Sequence record: PZ357121.2
Source of the DNA: a phage
Length of the DNA: 64,000 nucleotides
Strand: one strand, 5' to 3'
The notes below the pieces were generated by a model. It saw nothing but the letters and a program-made list of their open reading frames with translations, had not been told where the DNA came from and ran no database searches. A program made the position numbers and the translations under genes. Below are positions 1 through 14,484 of the stretch, one piece after another. Each line of letters opens with the position of its first letter. The first letter of the stretch is position 1.

Positions 1-270
1 ATCAATTAATGAATCAACCACAAATTCATTTTCAGACCAGAAATATTTACGAGTGTTATATGCGTTATCTTTATACCATAATGGAACAAACTTAAATTCT
101 GGGAAAAGACGTTCGCATTCTTTAATATCAGATGCATTACGTGGATATGTAATCACATCACCCGGATTAGCACGGTGCAAATGAAGTTGGAAGTTGCCAT
201 CCTTAAGGATAGCATACTGTCCAGTTTCATAAGACCGCATACTCAAGATAGGTACGCGGAAAATAGCCAT
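1..270 (-). CDS. hypothetical protein, 5' part only (gene runs off window start); sits where T4 has beta-glucosyltransferase
   Basis: Manual minus-strand translation from ATG 270..268: MAIFRVPILSMRSYETGQYAILKDGNFQLHLHRANPGDVITYPR...; SD AAGGA upstream; TAATG overlap with stop of upstream gene. Confidence 0.5.
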   Translation of the reverse strand, partial: MAIFRVPILSMRSYETGQYAILKDGNFQLHLHRANPGDVITYPRNASDIKECERLFPEFKFVPLWYKDNAYNTRKYFWSENEFVVDSLID

Positions 271-986
271 TAGTCAAGGAATCCTTTAACATAATCAAAA
301 TCACGGTCAAACACATGGGCACTTACCATGGTATGAGTATAATCACCAACTTCTACACCACATTCTTTAGCGATATAATGAAGTAATTTTCCTTGGAGAT
401 AAAAATCCAACTGCATAACAACAGCACAGTTCTGAGAACGCATATGACAGTGGGTATAAAGCTTACCATCACGAATATAATAAGTCACTGAGTCAGTACA
501 TGGATATTCAAGTGTTTCGTCCGAATCAAGCAAAGCCTGATCTGAACTTTCAAGAATTTGAAACACAACTCTTCGTGAATTAGGTTTCTCTTTAAGTTCT
601 TTGAGAAGAGCTGGTAACTGGGCCGCAATTCGTGGACCATAGAAAGTGTTGAAGTTTGCAGGCAAAGCGTCTGATTTAGGTTTAGAAATAAATTTAGCAA
701 CGTTAGGATATGCCTTAAATGCTTCTTCTGCGTCGGTACCACCAGAAATCATAAATTTCCAGAAGTCTTCGGCATATTCATAAGAGATGCGGTTAATACG
801 TGGGTCGGTCATTTTGAATGATGATGGAGTGTCAACAACTACTGTCATAGACCCAATTTCATTACAACGTCCAATACGAGAATCAGTTACGAATTCCGGG
901 TTTTCTAAAATTTCACGATTGACTGCTTTAAATGCGGATTGAAAATCTGCGGCTTTGATATATTTCATTGTGTTATGTTTTCCCAT
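270..986 (-). CDS. thymidylate-synthase-fold pyrimidine hydroxymethylase (dCMP hydroxymethylase, gene 42 position)
   Basis: 238 aa; TS/dCMP-HMase motifs NSRRVVFQI, catalytic Cys in YPCTDSV, HMRSQN; SD GAGGT 5 nt before ATG. Confidence 0.8.
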   Translation of the reverse strand: MGKHNTMKYIKAADFQSAFKAVNREILENPEFVTDSRIGRCNEIGSMTVVVDTPSSFKMTDPRINRISYEYAEDFWKFMISGGTDAEEAFKAYPNVAKFISKPKSDALPANFNTFYGPRIAAQLPALLKELKEKPNSRRVVFQILESSDQALLDSDETLEYPCTDSVTYYIRDGKLYTHCHMRSQNCAVVMQLDFYLQGKLLHYIAKECGVEVGDYTHTMVSAHVFDRDFDYVKGFLD

Positions 987-1106: not shown

Positions 1107-1265
1107 TCAGCGTAGTATTCTAGTTGAACAGGTTTTAATCACTTTAGCCGCTTTAGTTTCAAACAGGCCCTTATGGGCCTTTTTAAGAATTTGTTCGTTG
1201 CTGTTAATTTTCGTAGTCAAAATCTCTTCGTTAAGTTGGTGGTTAAAAGTTTTTCTAGAAATCAT
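1107..1265 (-). CDS. small hypothetical protein (52 aa), below ORF-track cutoff
   Basis: ATG overlaps stop of upstream gene (ATGA); SD GAGGT 8 nt upstream; manual translation MISRKTFNHQLNEEILTTK... Confidence 0.3.
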   Translation of the reverse strand: MISRKTFNHQLNEEILTTKINSNEQILKKAHKGLFETKAAKVIKTCSTRILR

Positions 1266-2422
1266 TCTGGGTACCTCAAAGCGTCGTCAGAGTTAGTTAT
1301 ATCAATAATAGATATAGAATTTTCTGATAACCCATTTTTAGATAACTGACGTTTATAATATCTTTCACAATATGTACACGTCGTCCCGCAGATTTCATTA
1401 GCACAATCGAAATCTGGATGTTTGAACCACCTTTTTTCTAAAAAGCCATCTAACAAAGAGGTTTCAATATTTACCGTATGTGAAAACTCAGTTTCGTTTT
1501 CAAGAGTGAAAATGGTCTCTAAAGGCTTCCACAATTCCAACAAATTACCTTCAAATTTTTCAGAAGCATAAGCTTCAAGAACTTTCAAAATGTAGTCTGT
1601 GCTACCTGTACGTCCCGAAACTTTAAATTGGGTGATACCAATATCGTTATAAAGTTTCAAATCTTGTGGACGAACAAAACGAGTTCTCAACCAGTTAAAT
1701 GGGTCTGTATCACGAGCTTTAATACAGTGCTGCATTGGATATCCATTTAAGGATTTGGCATCATCTACTGTAACATCGGTGCTATGGAAAATATAGCAAG
1801 AGTCACGATAACTACAATGTGTTGTATACCCTTTACCAGCATTAGAACAGAACTCATTTACAAGAACTTCAAATATTATATTGTTCTTATTGCAAAACTC
1901 TGCTGCACGCTTCAGGAAAGAAACTGAACGGTTCTTATGAATTCCACAGCAGACCTTTTTGATATTATATTGGTCATGCAAGTATTTGATTTGAGTTACA
2001 GCATCGACATGTAGAATTGTTGAAACTTCAATCTCAATGTCTTTATTGACTTCACGAACAATTTCCATAACAACAGGGTTAGCGATAGTAATACGCCATA
2101 CGCCTATTGACCAAAGATACTGAACATAATCCTGAATAGCTTTCTTCTTCCACTCAACTAGTTCTCTTTTTGAACCAGGATTTATCGTGTTGAGTGTATA
2201 GTTAAAGCAAATACCTAATTCGTTACAACGTTTAACGTAATCTTCTAACATCTTTTTGTCAACGTCGGGAAGCCTAAAATCAGGTCTGGCTGCTACAAAA
2301 GCCATTTCTCTTGTAGAGCCGTATACTTCGTTTATCAAGCTATTAGGATAAGTTTTATTGAGCTCTACGATTTTATCAAGAAGAGCTAAATCAAAATTCG
2401 TTCCGATTTTAAAGGTATTCAT
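1262..2422 (-). CDS. peptidase-U32-like TIM-barrel protein with Cys cluster (putative Fe-S enzyme), function unknown
   Basis: 386 aa; U32-like segments (KIGTNFDLALLDKIVEL, FNYTLNTIN, EVLVNEFCSNAGKGYTTHC); C-terminal CANEICGTTCTYC. Confidence 0.75.
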   Translation of the reverse strand: MNTFKIGTNFDLALLDKIVELNKTYPNSLINEVYGSTREMAFVAARPDFRLPDVDKKMLEDYVKRCNELGICFNYTLNTINPGSKRELVEWKKKAIQDYVQYLWSIGVWRITIANPVVMEIVREVNKDIEIEVSTILHVDAVTQIKYLHDQYNIKKVCCGIHKNRSVSFLKRAAEFCNKNNIIFEVLVNEFCSNAGKGYTTHCSYRDSCYIFHSTDVTVDDAKSLNGYPMQHCIKARDTDPFNWLRTRFVRPQDLKLYNDIGITQFKVSGRTGSTDYILKVLEAYASEKFEGNLLELWKPLETIFTLENETEFSHTVNIETSLLDGFLEKRWFKHPDFDCANEICGTTCTYCERYYKRQLSKNGLSENSISIIDITNSDDALRYPE

Positions 2423-2476
2423 TTTTGCATCTCGCGTTAATTGTTGCGATGGTTTTTGCAGGTCTTACTTAAATTA

Positions 2477-2863
2477 TTATAGATTCGGTTTATATGATTT
2501 AAATGTTTCGAATTCGCCTTTATTCATAAGAGCTTTGAATTCGTCAGGACGCATAGCTTTGTCGTCGATAATCCAATCATATACTGGTTTATGTGTTAGC
2601 AAATTATGGTACTTCAATCCAATGTTTGCCAAGTTCTGAATCAGACTTGGGAGAATGTCAATTGCTATACGACCAGGACCGACTGACTTCATACCGCGAG
2701 CAGTGTAAAGCGTTATGGTATGCCCTGCATCATACAGGGCATTAATGGCAGACACCATTTCGACGTCTGGTTTGAAGTTCACGTAATCACGATTGTTATT
2801 CCACTCTGTTATACAATCATCGACATCAAAACAAAGATTAAGCATGTTTTCTACACGGTGCAT
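2477..2863 (-). CDS. HAD-superfamily phosphatase (small, GmhB/HisB-N-like)
   Basis: 128 aa from ATG 2863 (TAATG overlap with upstream stop); HAD motifs FDVDDCI, TLYTARG, HKP, IIDD. Confidence 0.75.
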   Translation of the reverse strand: MHRVENMLNLCFDVDDCITEWNNNRDYVNFKPDVEMVSAINALYDAGHTITLYTARGMKSVGPGRIAIDILPSLIQNLANIGLKYHNLLTHKPVYDWIIDDKAMRPDEFKALMNKGEFETFKSYKPNL

Positions 2864-4548
2864 TAGATTCGTTCCCATTGATGAGTGATATCGCCACCGA
2901 TTGGACGATAAGAAACACCAGTTTCTTTATCAGTTAGTACCCATTTACCAGGATTTTTTGTAATCAGAGTAGCCGTTACAGGTTCTGCTACATCATAACT
3001 AATAGTGCCGTCCTGAAGTACACGGCCCATGTTACGTAATTGCTTAGTCAGAAGTTCCATACCTTTATAATATGCGGCTACCGCTTTAAGTGGATTATTC
3101 TTGAAATAACCACCTAATGCAATCCAGATAATTGCCACTGCCAAATGATGATACTCGTTAAACGAACTCATCTTTCCATATTTGTAAACTAACGGATTGA
3201 TGTTAATAGTCACATTACAAGTTGTTTCATCAATAGTAAACTGTCCCCAAGTCGGATTAGCGTTGAATTCATCATAACCTGAAACAGCGTAAAGCACTTT
3301 AGCTTCATCATACAATTTTGGCCCATAAATCTTGGTTTCACCAAAATATCCACGAGGGTCGATAAACTTGACTTCACCATTATCAGTAATCATAGTATTA
3401 CTGAAGTTCGGGTCACCATGAATAACAGAGTACTGTCCCTGAGAACGGTTATGATAACGAATAAGGTGTTCTAAAGCTTGTTTCAACATTGGCTTCAGAC
3501 GCCCAATCTTAGTGTAGTTCACATGTGTGATTTTACCAAATGAATCAATCAATGGTTGAATACTTTCACAACGATCAATAACTTTAGTATAGAATTCTTT
3601 AGTGAAATCACGACGAACAGTTTCAGGACTTACAAAATAAGTGTCTGTGCTGAATTTCAGTGCATCTAAAATTGCATCAACAATTTGTGGACGAGCAAGA
3701 CTTGATTTGGATTTAATATATTCAAATGCCGGCTTACCTTTAATGCGTTCCATTTCAAAGTTATTTTCATTAACAGAAACTAACTGAGGAACTGAATCTG
3801 ATTTCACTTTAAGATACCATGAAATCTCATCTTTCTGAAGAGCTCGGCCCTGTTCGGTTAATGCGAATTTAGTTACAGTTTCTTCACCAATTTCAACTGC
3901 ATTAAAACTACGATTAAGTTCACGAACTTCATGAGCTTTTTCAAGTTTAGGCATATCACCTAAATCAATTAGATTCATAAGCTCTGATTTATTGAATGCG
4001 CTGCCGTAAAGGAATTCTACGAAATCACGTCCTTTGCAGTATTCATGAATTTCCTCATCAGTAGAACCCATATAGAATTCCCAGTCTTTGAACTGATAAA
4101 TTCCTACAACATTACCACCTGTTGAACCTACATTAGTGATATTTTCACCGTCGAAATTATATCGACATTCGTCACCCTTAACATAGATTGCGTTAACATT
4201 CCAAGACCACGAACCAAAATCAGGAATAATATCACACCAGTTAACAATTACATTATGGCCGTCTAAATCTTTGTGCAATTTAGCAAGAGCATAAGCAGAA
4301 CCATACGCTTCATCAACTGTACGAATAGTCACATTGAACCCTTCTTGCTCACAATAAGCTCGAACAGTTTCAGCAAATTTTGAATGAACTACTACAATAA
4401 TTTCATCTGCGCCAAGGTCAGAATAAATTGTATACAAATTGCTCAGAATAGTGTCTTGTTTATAGTTAACAAGCACCTTAGGAATATGATGCGTTATTGG
4501 ATACAAACGAGTTGCCAGTCCAGCACCAAGAATAACAGCTTTTTTCAT
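2863..4548 (-). CDS. bifunctional sugar-1-phosphate nucleotidyltransferase / sugar kinase
   Basis: 561 aa; N-terminal NTP-transferase motif ILGAGLATRLYPIT..PKVLV; C-terminal APH/choline-kinase-fold motifs IHGDPNFSN and FIDPRGY; SD GAGGA. Confidence 0.85.
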   Translation of the reverse strand: MKKAVILGAGLATRLYPITHHIPKVLVNYKQDTILSNLYTIYSDLGADEIIVVVHSKFAETVRAYCEQEGFNVTIRTVDEAYGSAYALAKLHKDLDGHNVIVNWCDIIPDFGSWSWNVNAIYVKGDECRYNFDGENITNVGSTGGNVVGIYQFKDWEFYMGSTDEEIHEYCKGRDFVEFLYGSAFNKSELMNLIDLGDMPKLEKAHEVRELNRSFNAVEIGEETVTKFALTEQGRALQKDEISWYLKVKSDSVPQLVSVNENNFEMERIKGKPAFEYIKSKSSLARPQIVDAILDALKFSTDTYFVSPETVRRDFTKEFYTKVIDRCESIQPLIDSFGKITHVNYTKIGRLKPMLKQALEHLIRYHNRSQGQYSVIHGDPNFSNTMITDNGEVKFIDPRGYFGETKIYGPKLYDEAKVLYAVSGYDEFNANPTWGQFTIDETTCNVTININPLVYKYGKMSSFNEYHHLAVAIIWIALGGYFKNNPLKAVAAYYKGMELLTKQLRNMGRVLQDGTISYDVAEPVTATLITKNPGKWVLTDKETGVSYRPIGGDITHQWERI

Positions 4549-4729
4549 GTTGTGGTCCTCATTGGTAAGTAGGAGTATTGTACACTATTCTAGTTAAAGC
4601 ATTCATACTTTGCTTGTAGTCCAATCATAATCCATCCGATTATAAGAGTCGGAATCATTACTGGAGCCGTTAAGCTCCAGTAGATAGTCATGACAAGCAT
4701 CAATAGTAAAAGTCCTATTGTTATTGCTT

Positions 4730-5365
4730 TCATTGTTCGCCTCGTAACATGGCACCTAGTGCACCACCAGGGTGGAACTTAAGGAAGTCATTAGAGGTAA
4801 ATCCACGTTCAGACGAAAGGTTGATAGCAAACGTATCGATAAGCGCTAACAACAATGTAGTGGACATGGTCGGAGCCAGAGAATTCTCATCAACCTCTAC
4901 TGCGATGCCTGTACAGAACGTATAATCAAAAAGAGCTTCGTATTCTTGTGGAATGTCCGGGTTACAATGCAACAGAATCTGTTTGACGTTCGGACGAATC
5001 ATTTTAAGATGCTTAGCCACGCCTATCATTTCTTCAGTTTTACCAGAACGACTAATATGAATCAACACATCATTAGGCGCAATGAATCCTGCATCACCGT
5101 GAGAATAATGCCCAGTGTTCAAGTACATACTCGGGATACCAAGTGAAGCAAATGTCTCAGAAGCTTTAGTTGCAATATTAGCATTCTTACCAACACCTGT
5201 AATAATTACTCGGCTTTCATAATTACTAAGTCCTGGGCGTCGAAGAGTTTCTAGAATAGCATTATAACGAGCAGGGTTTTGACTAATTACTTTGGCCATA
5301 GCGGCCAAAGAAGAAGCTTGTTTTATGATTGCGTCAATAGCGATAGTAATAGGAGTAGTTTTCAT
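4730..5365 (-). CDS. SIS-domain arabinose-5-phosphate isomerase (KdsD/GutQ/KpsF type, no CBS domains)
   Basis: 211 aa; motifs GVGKNANIA, HGDAG, ISRSGKTEE, LAPTMSTT, FHPGGALG parallel E. coli KdsD. Confidence 0.85.
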   Translation of the reverse strand: MKTTPITIAIDAIIKQASSLAAMAKVISQNPARYNAILETLRRPGLSNYESRVIITGVGKNANIATKASETFASLGIPSMYLNTGHYSHGDAGFIAPNDVLIHISRSGKTEEMIGVAKHLKMIRPNVKQILLHCNPDIPQEYEALFDYTFCTGIAVEVDENSLAPTMSTTLLLALIDTFAINLSSERGFTSNDFLKFHPGGALGAMLRGEQ

Positions 5366-8569: not shown

Positions 8570-9133
8570 TTACCATTCCAATGCTAATTTTTTAAATTGT
8601 TTTTGTTCTTTCACATTTTTTGTAACTTCTTTGAGAAACTCATCAGTGACCATGGCCTTCAGCTCTTTAAGGACTATTGGCAACTTGTTATTTTTTTCAA
8701 GGAGCCGCTTATACTCGGTAGCATCATTCATGTTGATTGTGTAATGTTTCATCAACAGTTTGATAACTAGTAACTCTGAAGTGTCTTCGACTAGTTTAGC
8801 CCATTTAGAGAATCGACGACCACGCGGAATTGCCGCCATCATATAGTTGAAGTGCGCTTCATCACTTAATTCAGAACCTACTAAGTTCATCATGTAAACA
8901 GCTGGCATACATTCCGGGAACTGGGATAATGAGTTCTCAACCATAAATTTTGAGTAGTCGACCTGAGCAATTGACATAGATTTCTTTTCATTAATAGCAT
9001 TAATGATTTTAAAGAATTCATTCTCAGGTTTTTCTTTAAACATGTCAGCACATTTTTGAATCGCATCAGCGTCATTAGACTTCCATGCAATTTGGTGCTC
9101 GTTAAGTTGGACGTCATCATCAAATAAGTTCAT
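8570..9133 (-). CDS. 62: clamp-loader small subunit gp62
   Basis: 187 aa; [17 protein letters not shown]...KKLALEW matches T4 gp62 end to end. Confidence 0.92.
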
Positions 9134-9134
9134 A

Positions 9135-10097
9135 TTATTTCCAAGTCAGTTCGCAGGTCAGTTGAAGAAGCATATACATAACATGTAATTCAATATTACT
9201 TGCTAATCCATGAAACTTATTATTTTCGCCTGCAATTTCATAAAGCGAAATAATACTTTTACCTGGTGCAACTTTGTCATAACACTCAGAAACTAATTTA
9301 TCGATGAACCATGAATAATCAGCGGCATATTTTGGAGCTAATGCACGAAGTTGTTTGATATCTTTATTCTTCATTGCTTCGATAACGTCAGAGACTGTGC
9401 CACGATCATTGGTTACAATCGACAAAATACCTGCATCAAGAACACCTTTAGACGAGTACTGGTCTAATTGGCCAATTGTACGACGAAAGTCTGGGAAGTT
9501 CTTTTTAACCAGAGCTGCAACAACTTTCATATCAGCGATTTCGATATTTTCGTTCTTACAGATTTCAACCATGCGATGAATCATTTTCTTCATCATTGAG
9601 ATTTTATCTTCTTCGGTTGGACGTCCGAATTCGATAACTCGACAACGACTACGTAACGGTTCAATAATTCCATCGATGTTGTTAGCAGTAATAATAATAG
9701 AACAGTTACTAGAGAATTCTTCCATAAATGTACGAAGGTGTCGTTGTGATTCAGCAAGGCCACTACGGTCAAATTCATCGATAACGATAACTTTCGGCTT
9801 GCCTTCCATTGAGACTGAACGAGCGAATGCAGTTAACGGACCGCGTACAAAATCAATCTTACAATCAGAACCGTTGACGAACATCATTTCGGCGTTGATA
9901 TCGTTACATAATGCTTTTGCTACGGTTGTTTTACCGGTACCAGGAGATGGAGAGTGTAAAATAATATGAGGAAGTTTTCCTTTAGATACTAAAGACTTGA
10001 ATGTTTCATGGTCATACGCAGGCAGAATACATTCGTCAATGGAAGAAGGACGATATTTCTGTTCCAGAATGTGTTCTTTAGAATTGATAGTAATCAT
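9135..10097 (-). CDS. 44: clamp-loader ATPase gp44
   Basis: 320 aa; Walker [16 protein letters not shown], Walker B VIVIDEFD; position between 62 and 45. Confidence 0.92.
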
Positions 10098-11599: not shown

Positions 11600-12316
11600 A
11601 TGAATTATAACTCAATATACGAAAAGCTTATCACCAATGCTAAATCAAGAAGTTTAGATGGTTATACAGAACGTCATCACATTATACCACAATGTTTAGG
11701 TGGAAGTGATGATGCTTTAAACTTAGTAGACTTAACACCAGAAGAACATTATTTGGCACATCAACTGTTGGTAAAAATCCATCCAGATAATGCCTCTTTA
11801 ATATATGCTGCTCGTATGATGACTATCTCATCTCCTAAAGCAGATAGAAGCAAAAACAAATTATTTGGATGGCTTCGACGTAAGAATCAAGAAGTTCAAA
11901 AGAACAAAGAATTCACTGCTGAAACCCGTAAGAAAATGTCCGAGTCTGCAAAAAATAAACCAAAGATTACATGTCCACACTGCGGTTTAACCGGCACTGA
12001 AGGAAACATGAGACGTTGGCATTTTGATAACTGTAAACAGGGCCCTACGCCTAAAATAGTAAAACTTGATCAAGAAACAAAGGATAAAATAATTAAAACC
12101 ATGGCCACGAAAATTTGGAAAGAAGATTCTTGCCCGTTTTGTGGCTTAACTACTAAGTTATCGGCGTTAAAGCCGCATATAAAATTCTGTAAATCAAATC
12201 CTAACAGAAAGAAAAAAGAGGACAAGAAAATTAAATGTCCTCATTGCGATAAAATAGGGATCCCTGCTAATATGCATCGTTGGCATTTTGATAACTGTAA
12301 ACATAAGCCTCATTAA
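11600..12316 (+). CDS. HNH homing endonuclease with three tandem zinc-finger modules
   Basis: 238 aa; HNH motif ERHHIIPQCLGG..N; repeats CPHCGLTGTEGNMRRWHFDNCK / CPFCGLTT..KFCK / CPHCDKIGIPANMHRWHFDNCK; only plus-strand gene among minus-strand replication genes. Confidence 0.85.
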   Translation: MNYNSIYEKLITNAKSRSLDGYTERHHIIPQCLGGSDDALNLVDLTPEEHYLAHQLLVKIHPDNASLIYAARMMTISSPKADRSKNKLFGWLRRKNQEVQKNKEFTAETRKKMSESAKNKPKITCPHCGLTGTEGNMRRWHFDNCKQGPTPKIVKLDQETKDKIIKTMATKIWKEDSCPFCGLTTKLSALKPHIKFCKSNPNRKKKEDKKIKCPHCDKIGIPANMHRWHFDNCKHKPH

Positions 12317-14249: not shown

Positions 14250-14484
14250 CCTCGATGCAGGCTTCAGCCATTTTCAGAAGAGAACCAGGAGTATCACCGT
14301 CCATTACATTGAAACTGAATTCCACAGCCCAGTCTGTACAGACACGAACTGCTTTAACTTCACCGTCTTCAACTCGTAATGGTTCAATCCAGTATTTCAC
14401 TGTGTTCTCGAATCCGTCGTCGTCAATAACGTCTATTTCAACTTCAAGCCCGAGCCCAGCATTGTTAAATTCATCTAAAGTCAT
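14224..14484 (-). CDS. hypothetical acidic protein (46.2-like)
   Basis: 86 aa ORF between 47 and 46. Confidence 0.55.
   Translation of the reverse strand: MTLDEFNNAGLGLEVEIDVIDDDGFENTVKYWIEPLRVEDGEVKAVRVCTDWAVEFSFNVMDGDTPGSLLKMAEACIEDAYNDYED

Follow-up and report, generated by a model that had tools for sequence, protein, structure and literature searches.

Several U32-family proteins are known from Escherichia coli. RlhA (YdcP) is required for 5-hydroxycytidine-2501 of 23S rRNA, and needs both prephenate synthesis and Fe-S biogenesis (PMC5727448). TrhP (YegQ) forms 5-hydroxyuridine-34 of tRNA in a prephenate-dependent and O2-independent manner, in parallel to the O2-dependent TrhO. In UbiU/V, prephenate was identified as the oxygen donor by 18O labelling, the same was proposed by the authors for U32 proteins generally, and the pathway was rescued by a chorismate mutase domain alone. 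In phage RB69, 5-hydroxylation is catalyzed by gp48, a thymidylate-synthase homolog (referred to as ThyA-like) that converts dCMP to 5-hydroxy-dCMP: the enzyme purifies with loosely bound flavin, and oxygen from 18O2 was recovered in the 5-hydroxy-dC produced (PMC13326640). The subject of this study is a U32 gene located beside a ThyA-like gene in a stretch of 64,000 nucleotides of phage DNA (sequence record PZ357121.2; the whole stretch is referred to as the window). From sequence and genomic context, we favor with moderate confidence the reading that this U32 protein is a prephenate-dependent, O2-independent C5-hydroxylase of a cytosine deoxynucleotide, and either replaces the ThyA-like enzyme or serves as its anaerobic counterpart.

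The window derives from an RB69-like (Mosigvirus) T4-type phage; the nearest record was 98.8% identical in the first 5.5 kb. The U32 gene and its two cysteine-containing regions are as follows.

1262..2422, minus strand: U32-family protein of 386 amino acids, ortholog of RB69 ORF050c / RB69p050
1724..1855, minus strand: central U32 signature, residues 190-233 (E190, C192, C203, C209, C233); variant U32 Glu/Cys motif, putative [4Fe-4S] site
1367..1405, minus strand: C-terminal CX4CX3CX2C group (C340, C345, C349, C352), putative second metal or Fe-S site

An earlier annotation made from the letters alone (the sequence-only reading) had described this open reading frame (ORF) as a TIM-barrel protein of the U32 family with conserved Cys groups, whose characterised relatives are O2-independent hydroxylases. 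All of these statements were borne out: the ORF and every quoted motif were present as described, and the literature on RlhA, TrhP, and UbiU/V agreed with the chemistry. The protein matched Pfam PF01136 (Peptidase U32) at residues 94-286 with 42.4 bits against a gathering score of 22.4 (E 6.3e-11), and the same match was precomputed for 116 of the 120 homologs among those listed. The predicted TIM barrel was like that of Mk0906 from Methanopyrus kandleri (PDB 5D88), the only solved U32 structure, with 14% identity over 247 residues that did not cover the Cys-rich C-terminal region of the phage protein. PDB searches with the protein sequence or the family profile gave no meaningful match, and one spurious hit (BIM1, E 0.012).

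On the other hand, the protein did not belong to any of the named U32 subgroups. No equivalog was matched in NCBIfam, where the sole hit was the UbiU model (19.4 bits against a cut-off of 440). DUF3656 of RlhA was absent in Pfam, as was a match to the RlhA model in NCBIfam, and the length was 386 instead of 653 amino acids. As for TrhP, PF01136 was the only Pfam match, no NCBIfam match was found, and the hhalign probability was 7%. Neither an adjoining second U32 gene nor an SCP2-like gene, as expected for UbiU/UbiV, was present in the window or in the T4-like loci. There was also no Thymidylat_synt match in Pfam; the ThyA-like 5-hydroxy-dCMP synthases are marked by the thymidylate synthase fold with the published D169N signature.

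Among the E. coli paralogs, RlhA gave the clearest alignment with the phage family profile (hhalign probability 84.6%, E 6.8e-6, 204 columns; profile-to-sequence), whereas the probabilities for the single sequences of UbiU, UbiV, and TrhP were all below 8%. This alignment paired E190, C203, and C209 of the phage protein with E161, C169, and C176 of RlhA, and FKVSGR with FKIEGR. In RlhA, the two Cys residues of the U32 motif are essential, and E161A almost abolishes activity (PMC5727448); these residues are unnumbered in that report, and we identified them as C169 and C176 because the signature contains only two Cys. The Glu and first two Cys of the signature, found as E-x-F-x2-G-[SA]-L-C-x6-C in UbiU, RlhA, and TrhP, were therefore present in a variant form: E-F-C-x10-C-x5-C, with a five-residue insertion predicted to be a β-hairpin. 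In the canonical motif, four Cys are arranged as CX6CX15CX3C in RlhA/TrhP (C169, C176, C193, and C232 in UbiU); in place of the CX3C pair, the phage family has C192 and C233. E190, C192, C203, C209, and C233 were all invariant among 28 homologs, as were C340, C345, C349, and C352 of the C-terminal group (28/28), and C-terminal Cys are also needed by RlhA (PMC5727448). Ten Cys were invariant in homologs down to 46% identity, and many database homologs of 46-58% identity retained all ten. Family membership, the fold, and the conserved Glu/Cys signature are shown by these results, and the phage protein may bind an Fe-S cluster.

In comparison with RlhA, the phage protein shares the U32 domain, the aligned Glu and two Cys, additional C-terminal Cys, and the proposed target atom (C5 of cytosine), but differs in size (386 and 653 amino acids, respectively), in the absence of DUF3656, and in the motif (C-x10-C-x5-C-x23-C instead of CX6CX15CX3C). 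Furthermore, RlhA acts on one residue of an rRNA precursor, whereas the phage enzyme would have to modify all cytosine in precursor for a whole genome. TrhP and TrhO are two non-homologous enzymes for one 5-hydroxypyrimidine product, an O2 route and a prephenate route kept together where organisms encounter both conditions, similarly to the ThyA-like and U32 genes; however, their substrate is tRNA uridine, TrhP has 453 amino acids and the canonical motif, and the aerobic partner is the rhodanese TrhO, not a ThyA-like flavoenzyme. UbiU and UbiV, which are U32-family members and [4Fe-4S] proteins, replace flavin/O2 monooxygenases under anoxia, but act as a heterodimer on UbiT-held lipid substrates, and no UbiV- or UbiT-like partner was seen beside the phage gene. 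The TrhP/TrhO and UbiUV/UbiIHF pairs are precedents for an anaerobic counterpart of an O2-dependent synthase. The ThyA-like synthases (RB69 gp48, DLP3 gp80, and the HY126 homolog) share with the U32 protein a position by GT1 (see below) and a kinase and, as proposed, the product and pathway; they differ in their unrelated fold (thymidylate synthase superfamily), their flavin and O2 dependence, and an experimentally demonstrated function, whereas the role of U32 is predicted.

The U32 gene is under strong purifying selection. The ratio of nonsynonymous to synonymous substitution rates (dN/dS; Nei-Gojobori) was 0.03 and 0.02 against RB69 and a second Mosigvirus, respectively, a constraint at least equal to that of the ThyA-like gene (0.04-0.06). 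The protein differed from its RB69 ortholog by three substitutions in 386 residues and was the best-conserved one of the cluster among T4-like genera: 83-89% identity, while the ThyA-like protein kept 73-82%, the isomerase 66-75%, and the nucleotidyltransferase/kinase 42-73%. The RB69 annotation of ORF050c is three codons longer (MQKMNTF...; window 2420-2431 against positions 4654-4662 of locus L060), while the window ORF begins at MNTF; since the window has no upstream start, the shorter one is probably real.

The gene itself is already known and annotated. Database records label it as "peptidase", "putative protease", or "collagenase protein"; RB69p050 was listed with "homologs among peptidases" in an older survey, and as a "sugar or heterocycle reductase" with structural match 5D88 in Table 1 of PMC13326640, whose discussion names the RlhA and TrhP hydroxylation pathways without linking them to gp50. 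A role as an O2-independent DNA-precursor hydroxylase together with phage prephenate-pathway genes appears not to have been assigned in the accessible literature: searches for U32 or chorismate mutase in phages found nothing relevant, with He et al. 2026 and Mahler et al. 2025, which may assign the gene, outside their coverage.

The U32 gene lies within the following module for the synthesis of arabinosyl-5-hydroxycytosine.

1..273, minus strand: GT1, the first DNA arabinosyltransferase, RB69 gp46:47 family (gene start; runs off the window start), located by tblastn
270..986, minus strand: ThyA-like 5-hydroxy-dCMP synthase, ortholog of RB69 ORF048c / gp48 (Pfam Thymidylat_synt; 98.7% identical to ORF048c)
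2477..2878, minus strand: HAD-type phosphatase, AfhF-like, RB69 gp51, UDP-arabinose pathway (PHROG 1238)
2863..4548, minus strand: bifunctional nucleotidyltransferase/kinase (NTK), AfhE-like, RB69 gp52:53 (Pfam NTP_transferase and kinase-like C-terminal matches; PHROG 4098)
4730..5365, minus strand: SIS-domain arabinose-5-phosphate isomerase, RB69 gp55 (Pfam SIS; PHROG 5670)

With GT1 queries, tblastn gave a match directly after the ThyA-like gene; the function of GT1 is putative (PMC13326640 Table 1). UDP-arabinofuranose is made by the three genes upstream of the U32 ORF, and AfhE and AfhF alone convert arabinose-5-phosphate to UDP-arabinose (roles as summarised in PMC13326640). RB69 DNA contains mono- and di-arabinosyl-5-hydroxycytosine, not arabinosyl-hydroxymethylcytosine (PMC13326640), and a report on a related Mosigvirus agrees on arabinosyl-5-hydroxycytosine (PMC13390438). 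The functional suggestions of the sequence-only reading fared less well than its description of the protein. The neighbor that it had called a hydroxymethylase is the ortholog of a proven flavin/O2-dependent 5-hydroxy-dCMP synthase, so that its scheme of hydroxymethylcytosine glycosylation is inapplicable, and the fold is not that of a glycosyltransferase, contrary to the suggestion of a new transferase. An additional modification (+16) had also been considered; however, the modified nucleosides of RB69 and Acinetobacter phage DLP3, whose published cluster lacks U32, are alike in mass and retention time (PMC13326640). A second, O2-independent route to the same 5-hydroxyl fits better.

Among T4-like relatives, ThyA-like was located directly before GT1 in 19/19 clusters (the window and 18 loci). 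U32 homologs of at least 80% identity were found in 222 phage records, which are named, save for a few without a host genus, after Enterobacterales and Shewanella. The ThyA-like synthase was found in 374 records, including those of 57 Acinetobacter and 20 Rhizobium phages, in which it occurs alone, without U32. The gene order in Acinetobacter phage DLP1 is HAD and then directly ThyA-like. Within Kanagawavirus, both arrangements occur: HAD, U32, chorismate mutase, and ThyA-like in Entb_45, and HAD followed directly by ThyA-like in IME523, showing that the U32 and chorismate mutase genes were gained or lost together. The E. coli phage VR5 (Dhakavirus) also lacks both genes, and Bas46/47 are further relatives that have no U32. 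The absence of U32 from VR5 and IME523 indicates that phages can be isolated on enteric hosts without this gene.

Prephenate, the proposed oxygen donor, is the product of chorismate mutase. In the Enterobacter phage Entb_45, a type II chorismate mutase of 79 amino acids (Pfam CM_2, 40.9 bits against a cut-off of 27) is encoded between the U32 and ThyA-like genes and overlaps both, through stop/start codons shared at its borders. A type II chorismate mutase of 75-80 amino acids was found between these two genes in 56 of approximately 68 non-Mosigvirus phage records, and a chorismate mutase in 12 of the 15 T4-like viral loci fetched. In a Klebsiella-phage lineage whose U32 is 89% identical to that of the window, the enzyme is replaced by a gap of 47 bp (L011 11158-11205, in comparison with L013 11161-11400); given this gap, the loss of chorismate mutase apparently occurred on more than one occasion, with U32 retained. 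In the window, the position of this gene in most non-Mosigvirus relatives is occupied by another ORF.

1107..1265, minus strand: ORF of 52 amino acids, frameshifted copy of RB69 ORF049c (79 amino acids in RB69 and in locus L010), with a 2-bp deletion relative to both

Its start overlaps the stop of U32 (ATGA). The deletion, near 1125-1135 of the window (GATTAAAGAACC -> GATTAAAACC), could reflect either a genuine frameshift or an error in sequencing. This ORF had no Pfam CM_2 match. The possibility that the slot (986-1265) contains a decayed chorismate mutase was rejected, since a profile of 12 phage chorismate mutases matched neither its six frames nor intact ORF049c.

Among the loci examined for more distant homologs (5 obtained via encoding contigs and 47 from viral contigs), the arrangements of U32 included the following.

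GT1, SIS, NTK, HAD, U32: L033, L034, L043, L045, L049, L053
GT1, SIS, NTK, fusion of DAHP synthase and chorismate mutase, HAD, U32: L036, L039, L040 (L037 partial)
GT1, SIS, NTK, U32, DAHP synthase: L008
Thymidylate kinase (Tmk)-like, GT1, U32: L009, L027, L031, L032, L038, L041, L052 (L009 and L032 also with TAGT-type transferases)
U32, GT1, NTK, HAD: L042, L044, L047, L048, L050, L056
dCMP deaminase, U32: L005, L051
Tmk, U32, DAHP synthase: L024

A GT1 homolog was located within 10 kb of U32 in 20 distinct distant loci, most of which also carried a Tmk-like kinase or the genes of the sugar branch (SIS, AfhE-like, and HAD). Among these 20, a ThyA-like gene within 10 kb was found only in L026 (25% identity, E 8e-7). 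In seven loci, the end of a gene for approximately 330 amino acids overlapped the start of U32, and this gene was a GT1 homolog (hhalign 99.7%, E 4.7e-27; BLASTP E-values down to 8e-26). The gene preceding it (approximately 175 amino acids) encoded a weakly Tmk-like kinase in six of the seven loci (BLASTP E 5e-8 to 8e-3), while the BLASTP similarity in L038 was not significant. Pfam matches among the 135 immediate neighbors of U32 were thymidylate kinase (8), DAHP-synthase family (6), Pol III alpha (5), SIS (5), type II chorismate mutase (4), dUTPase (3), and dCMP deaminase, UDG, DCD, and TAGT (2 each). Pyrimidine deoxynucleotide metabolism was represented by thymidylate kinase, dCMP deaminase, dUTPase/DCD, NT5C, dNK, and UDG.

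DAHP synthases were encoded in five distant loci, in three of which they were fused to chorismate mutase.

L036 8411-9433: viral DAHP synthase, fused
L039 7302-8357: viral DAHP synthase, fused
L040 8332-9387: viral DAHP synthase, fused
L008 9145-9891: viral DAHP synthase
L024 9384-10130: viral DAHP synthase

The fusions are located two genes upstream of U32 (L037 contains a partial copy), and the unfused synthases of L008 and L024 directly after it. These proteins are DAHP synthases of the Bacillus subtilis type (216-237 bits, in comparison with approximately 60 for KDO8P synthase models), and a CM_2 domain is fused to the C-terminus of that of L036. Including the chorismate mutase slot of T4-like phages, U32 is therefore linked to prephenate genes in three separate arrangements: the slot, the fusion, and DAHP synthase. 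The occurrence of entry and branch-point enzymes of the shikimate pathway as phage auxiliary genes appears to be previously undescribed. The nearest cellular relatives of the fusion are bifunctional enzymes of Bacteroidota (approximately 46% identity); an inference of anaerobic hosts from this fusion was dropped because the Bacteroidota relatives are of mixed oxygen physiology.

The attachment of a sugar to the 5-hydroxyl needs a hydroxylase, and the module occurs with ThyA-like only, with both enzymes, or with U32 only: a pattern of non-orthologous displacement. Together with the chemistry of the family and the repeated linkage to prephenate genes, this pattern points to U32 as the O2-independent 5-hydroxylase of a cytosine deoxynucleotide. 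The divergent iron-sulfur enzyme would hydroxylate C5 without O2, probably converting dCMP to 5-hydroxy-dCMP, with the oxygen atom drawn from prephenate, as is known or presumed for the cellular enzymes RlhA, TrhP, and UbiU/V. Under anoxia, it would duplicate the step performed in air by the flavin/O2-dependent ThyA-like synthase, and the usual steps would follow for 5-hydroxy-dCMP: phosphorylation, incorporation into DNA, and arabinosylation. In this phage, prephenate would be supplied by PheA/TyrA of the host; with no chorismate mutase gene in the window or in Mosigviruses, U32 would depend on that of the host. The prephenate dependence, the substrate, and the anaerobic role are all deduced from family and context. 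An anaerobic role fits the lack of a U32-specific nucleoside in aerobic RB69 relative to DLP3, and the strong purifying selection on a gene dispensable for modification in air. For the distant loci, it is possible, if somewhat doubtful, that a mostly uncultured phage group, including contigs (120-470 kb) that encode polymerases of the Pol III alpha type, uses U32 as its sole 5-hydroxypyrimidine synthase, with the oxygen of every modified base coming from prephenate and the DAHP synthase and chorismate mutase genes directing shikimate flux of the host to this donor.

Several observations weigh against these proposals. Chorismate mutase is missing from the window and from all Mosigviruses, and the predicted phage enzyme elsewhere covers only the first two-thirds of the Pfam profile. 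The same pathway occurs without U32 in some phages of E. coli and Enterobacter (VR5 and IME523), and the correlation of U32 with the host is uncorrected for phylogeny. The canonical four-Cys motif is incomplete in the phage protein: the CX3C pair (C192 and C196 in RlhA) has no counterpart. In the distant loci, the absence of ThyA-like covers 10 kb per side of contigs of up to 466 kb. We know of no U32 enzyme that acts on a free nucleotide or on DNA. No U32 enzyme has so far been reconstituted in vitro, and a biochemical or genetic test of this U32 protein was not found in the accessible literature.

The same chemistry may instead be performed on the polymer, with U32 hydroxylating cytosine in DNA after replication, much as folded RNA is the substrate of RlhA and TrhP. 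All characterised U32 enzymes for nucleic acids act on polymers, and the overlap of the GT1 and U32 reading frames in seven distant loci is also in line with this; however, T4-like phages exclude dCTP (a dCTPase is listed for both RB69 and DLP3 in Table 1 of PMC13326640), which should leave little cytosine in DNA as a target, and the recurrent neighbors act at the nucleotide level (Tmk-like kinase, dCMP deaminase, dUTPase/DCD, NT5C, and dNK). Action on the nucleotide is favored on these grounds, and that on DNA is unlikely. Since U32 is adjacent to the flavoenzyme in all T4-like loci and has many conserved Cys, it may also be an Fe-S electron-transfer protein that provides the ThyA-like synthase with reduced flavin or reduces an intermediate, as might be read from its label of reductase in PMC13326640 Table 1. 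We consider this improbable, because 19 of the 20 distant GT1-U32 loci have no ThyA-like partner within 10 kb, ThyA-like enzymes function without U32 both in Acinetobacter phages and on expression in E. coli, and the chorismate mutase and DAHP synthase neighbors are left unexplained.

A function in the sugar branch, in which U32 modifies arabinose, UDP-arabinose, or the attached sugar, is decidedly improbable. U32 is indeed a few genes from AfhE-like and HAD in approximately 17 distinct distant loci, 11 of which also have SIS, and TIM barrels are common among sugar enzymes. DLP3, however, lacks U32 and forms the same mono- and di-arabinosyl nucleosides, and AfhE and AfhF suffice for UDP-arabinose, as summarised in PMC13326640. 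No arabinose genes are in reach at the seven Tmk-GT1-U32 and two dCMP deaminase-U32 loci, and L009 and L032 carry TAGT-type transferases instead, accompanied in L009 by UDP-galactopyranose mutase. An RNA hydroxylase similar to TrhP or RlhA, remodelling tRNA or rRNA of the host or phage during infection, is very improbable even though RlhA is the E. coli paralog with the best single-sequence profile match: the C-terminal domains specific to RlhA and TrhP are absent, no curated equivalog is matched, the host already has both enzymes, and every context examined is a module for DNA precursors or DNA glycosylation. T4-like phages do carry tRNA genes, which is a point in its favor. A true peptidase or collagenase, as the database labels suggest, is hardly credible, since the name of the family is historical, its characterised members are linked to hydroxylation, and the genomic context is unrelated to proteolysis.

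The known 5-hydroxycytosine pathway needs an O2-dependent flavoenzyme, and many of these phages infect gut bacteria that often grow without oxygen. If U32 is the anaerobic C5-hydroxylase, this would explain how the DNA modification is made under anoxia, and U32 chemistry would reach beyond RNA and quinones to the precursors of DNA. Chorismate mutase and DAHP synthase would be auxiliary metabolic genes that serve the phage for a defined purpose, the oxygen dependence of therapeutic phages in this group would differ with the presence of U32, and a small, soluble, high-flux U32 enzyme would be available for reconstitution in vitro. The U32-only group would, in turn, provide the first U32 hydroxylase for DNA precursors and the first case of a virus using an organic oxygen donor. 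Its demand for prephenate would be stoichiometric: by our own rough estimate, approximately 6e4 cytosines per 170-kb genome and, multiplied by the burst size, approximately 1e7 prephenate per infected cell, a sizeable share of the normal flux to aromatic amino acids.

Several of the distant loci had additional features. In L006 8001-14360 (also L007), U32 is located on a contig that also encodes dockerin/GH43 proteins, and its neighbors are NT5C, an NMN-transporter-like gene, dNK, radical SAM/SPASM, and a nucleoside deoxyribosyltransferase-like gene; a second U32 paralog among these neighbors is highly divergent (22% identity). These genes may form a separate cluster for nucleoside modification. 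In L009 (9098-10000, 12267-13076, and 13073-14179), U32 is followed by two homologs of TAGT-type glycosyltransferases and UDP-galactopyranose mutase, and two TAGT homologs are also present in L032 (11086-11979 and near 14281), which suggests that hexofuranose is attached to the same hydroxyl handle and recalls Rhizobium phage RL38J1. In L034, an IS605 OrfB / TnpB (Cas12f-like) gene is inserted between HAD and U32 (8689-9951).

In the window, the minus strand beyond the cluster encodes DNA polymerase, clamp-loader, and clamp genes. A scan for promoters and terminators gave a number of sites not above that in shuffled sequence, and an ORF of the size of NrdD was not seen in the remainder of the window. 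An ORF of 238 amino acids (11600-12316, plus strand), on the strand opposite to the surrounding replication genes, has an HNH-like N-terminus (HHIIPQCLGG...EEH) and repeated CPHCG...NMRRWHFDNCK motifs, and resembles a homing endonuclease that was inserted into the replication module.

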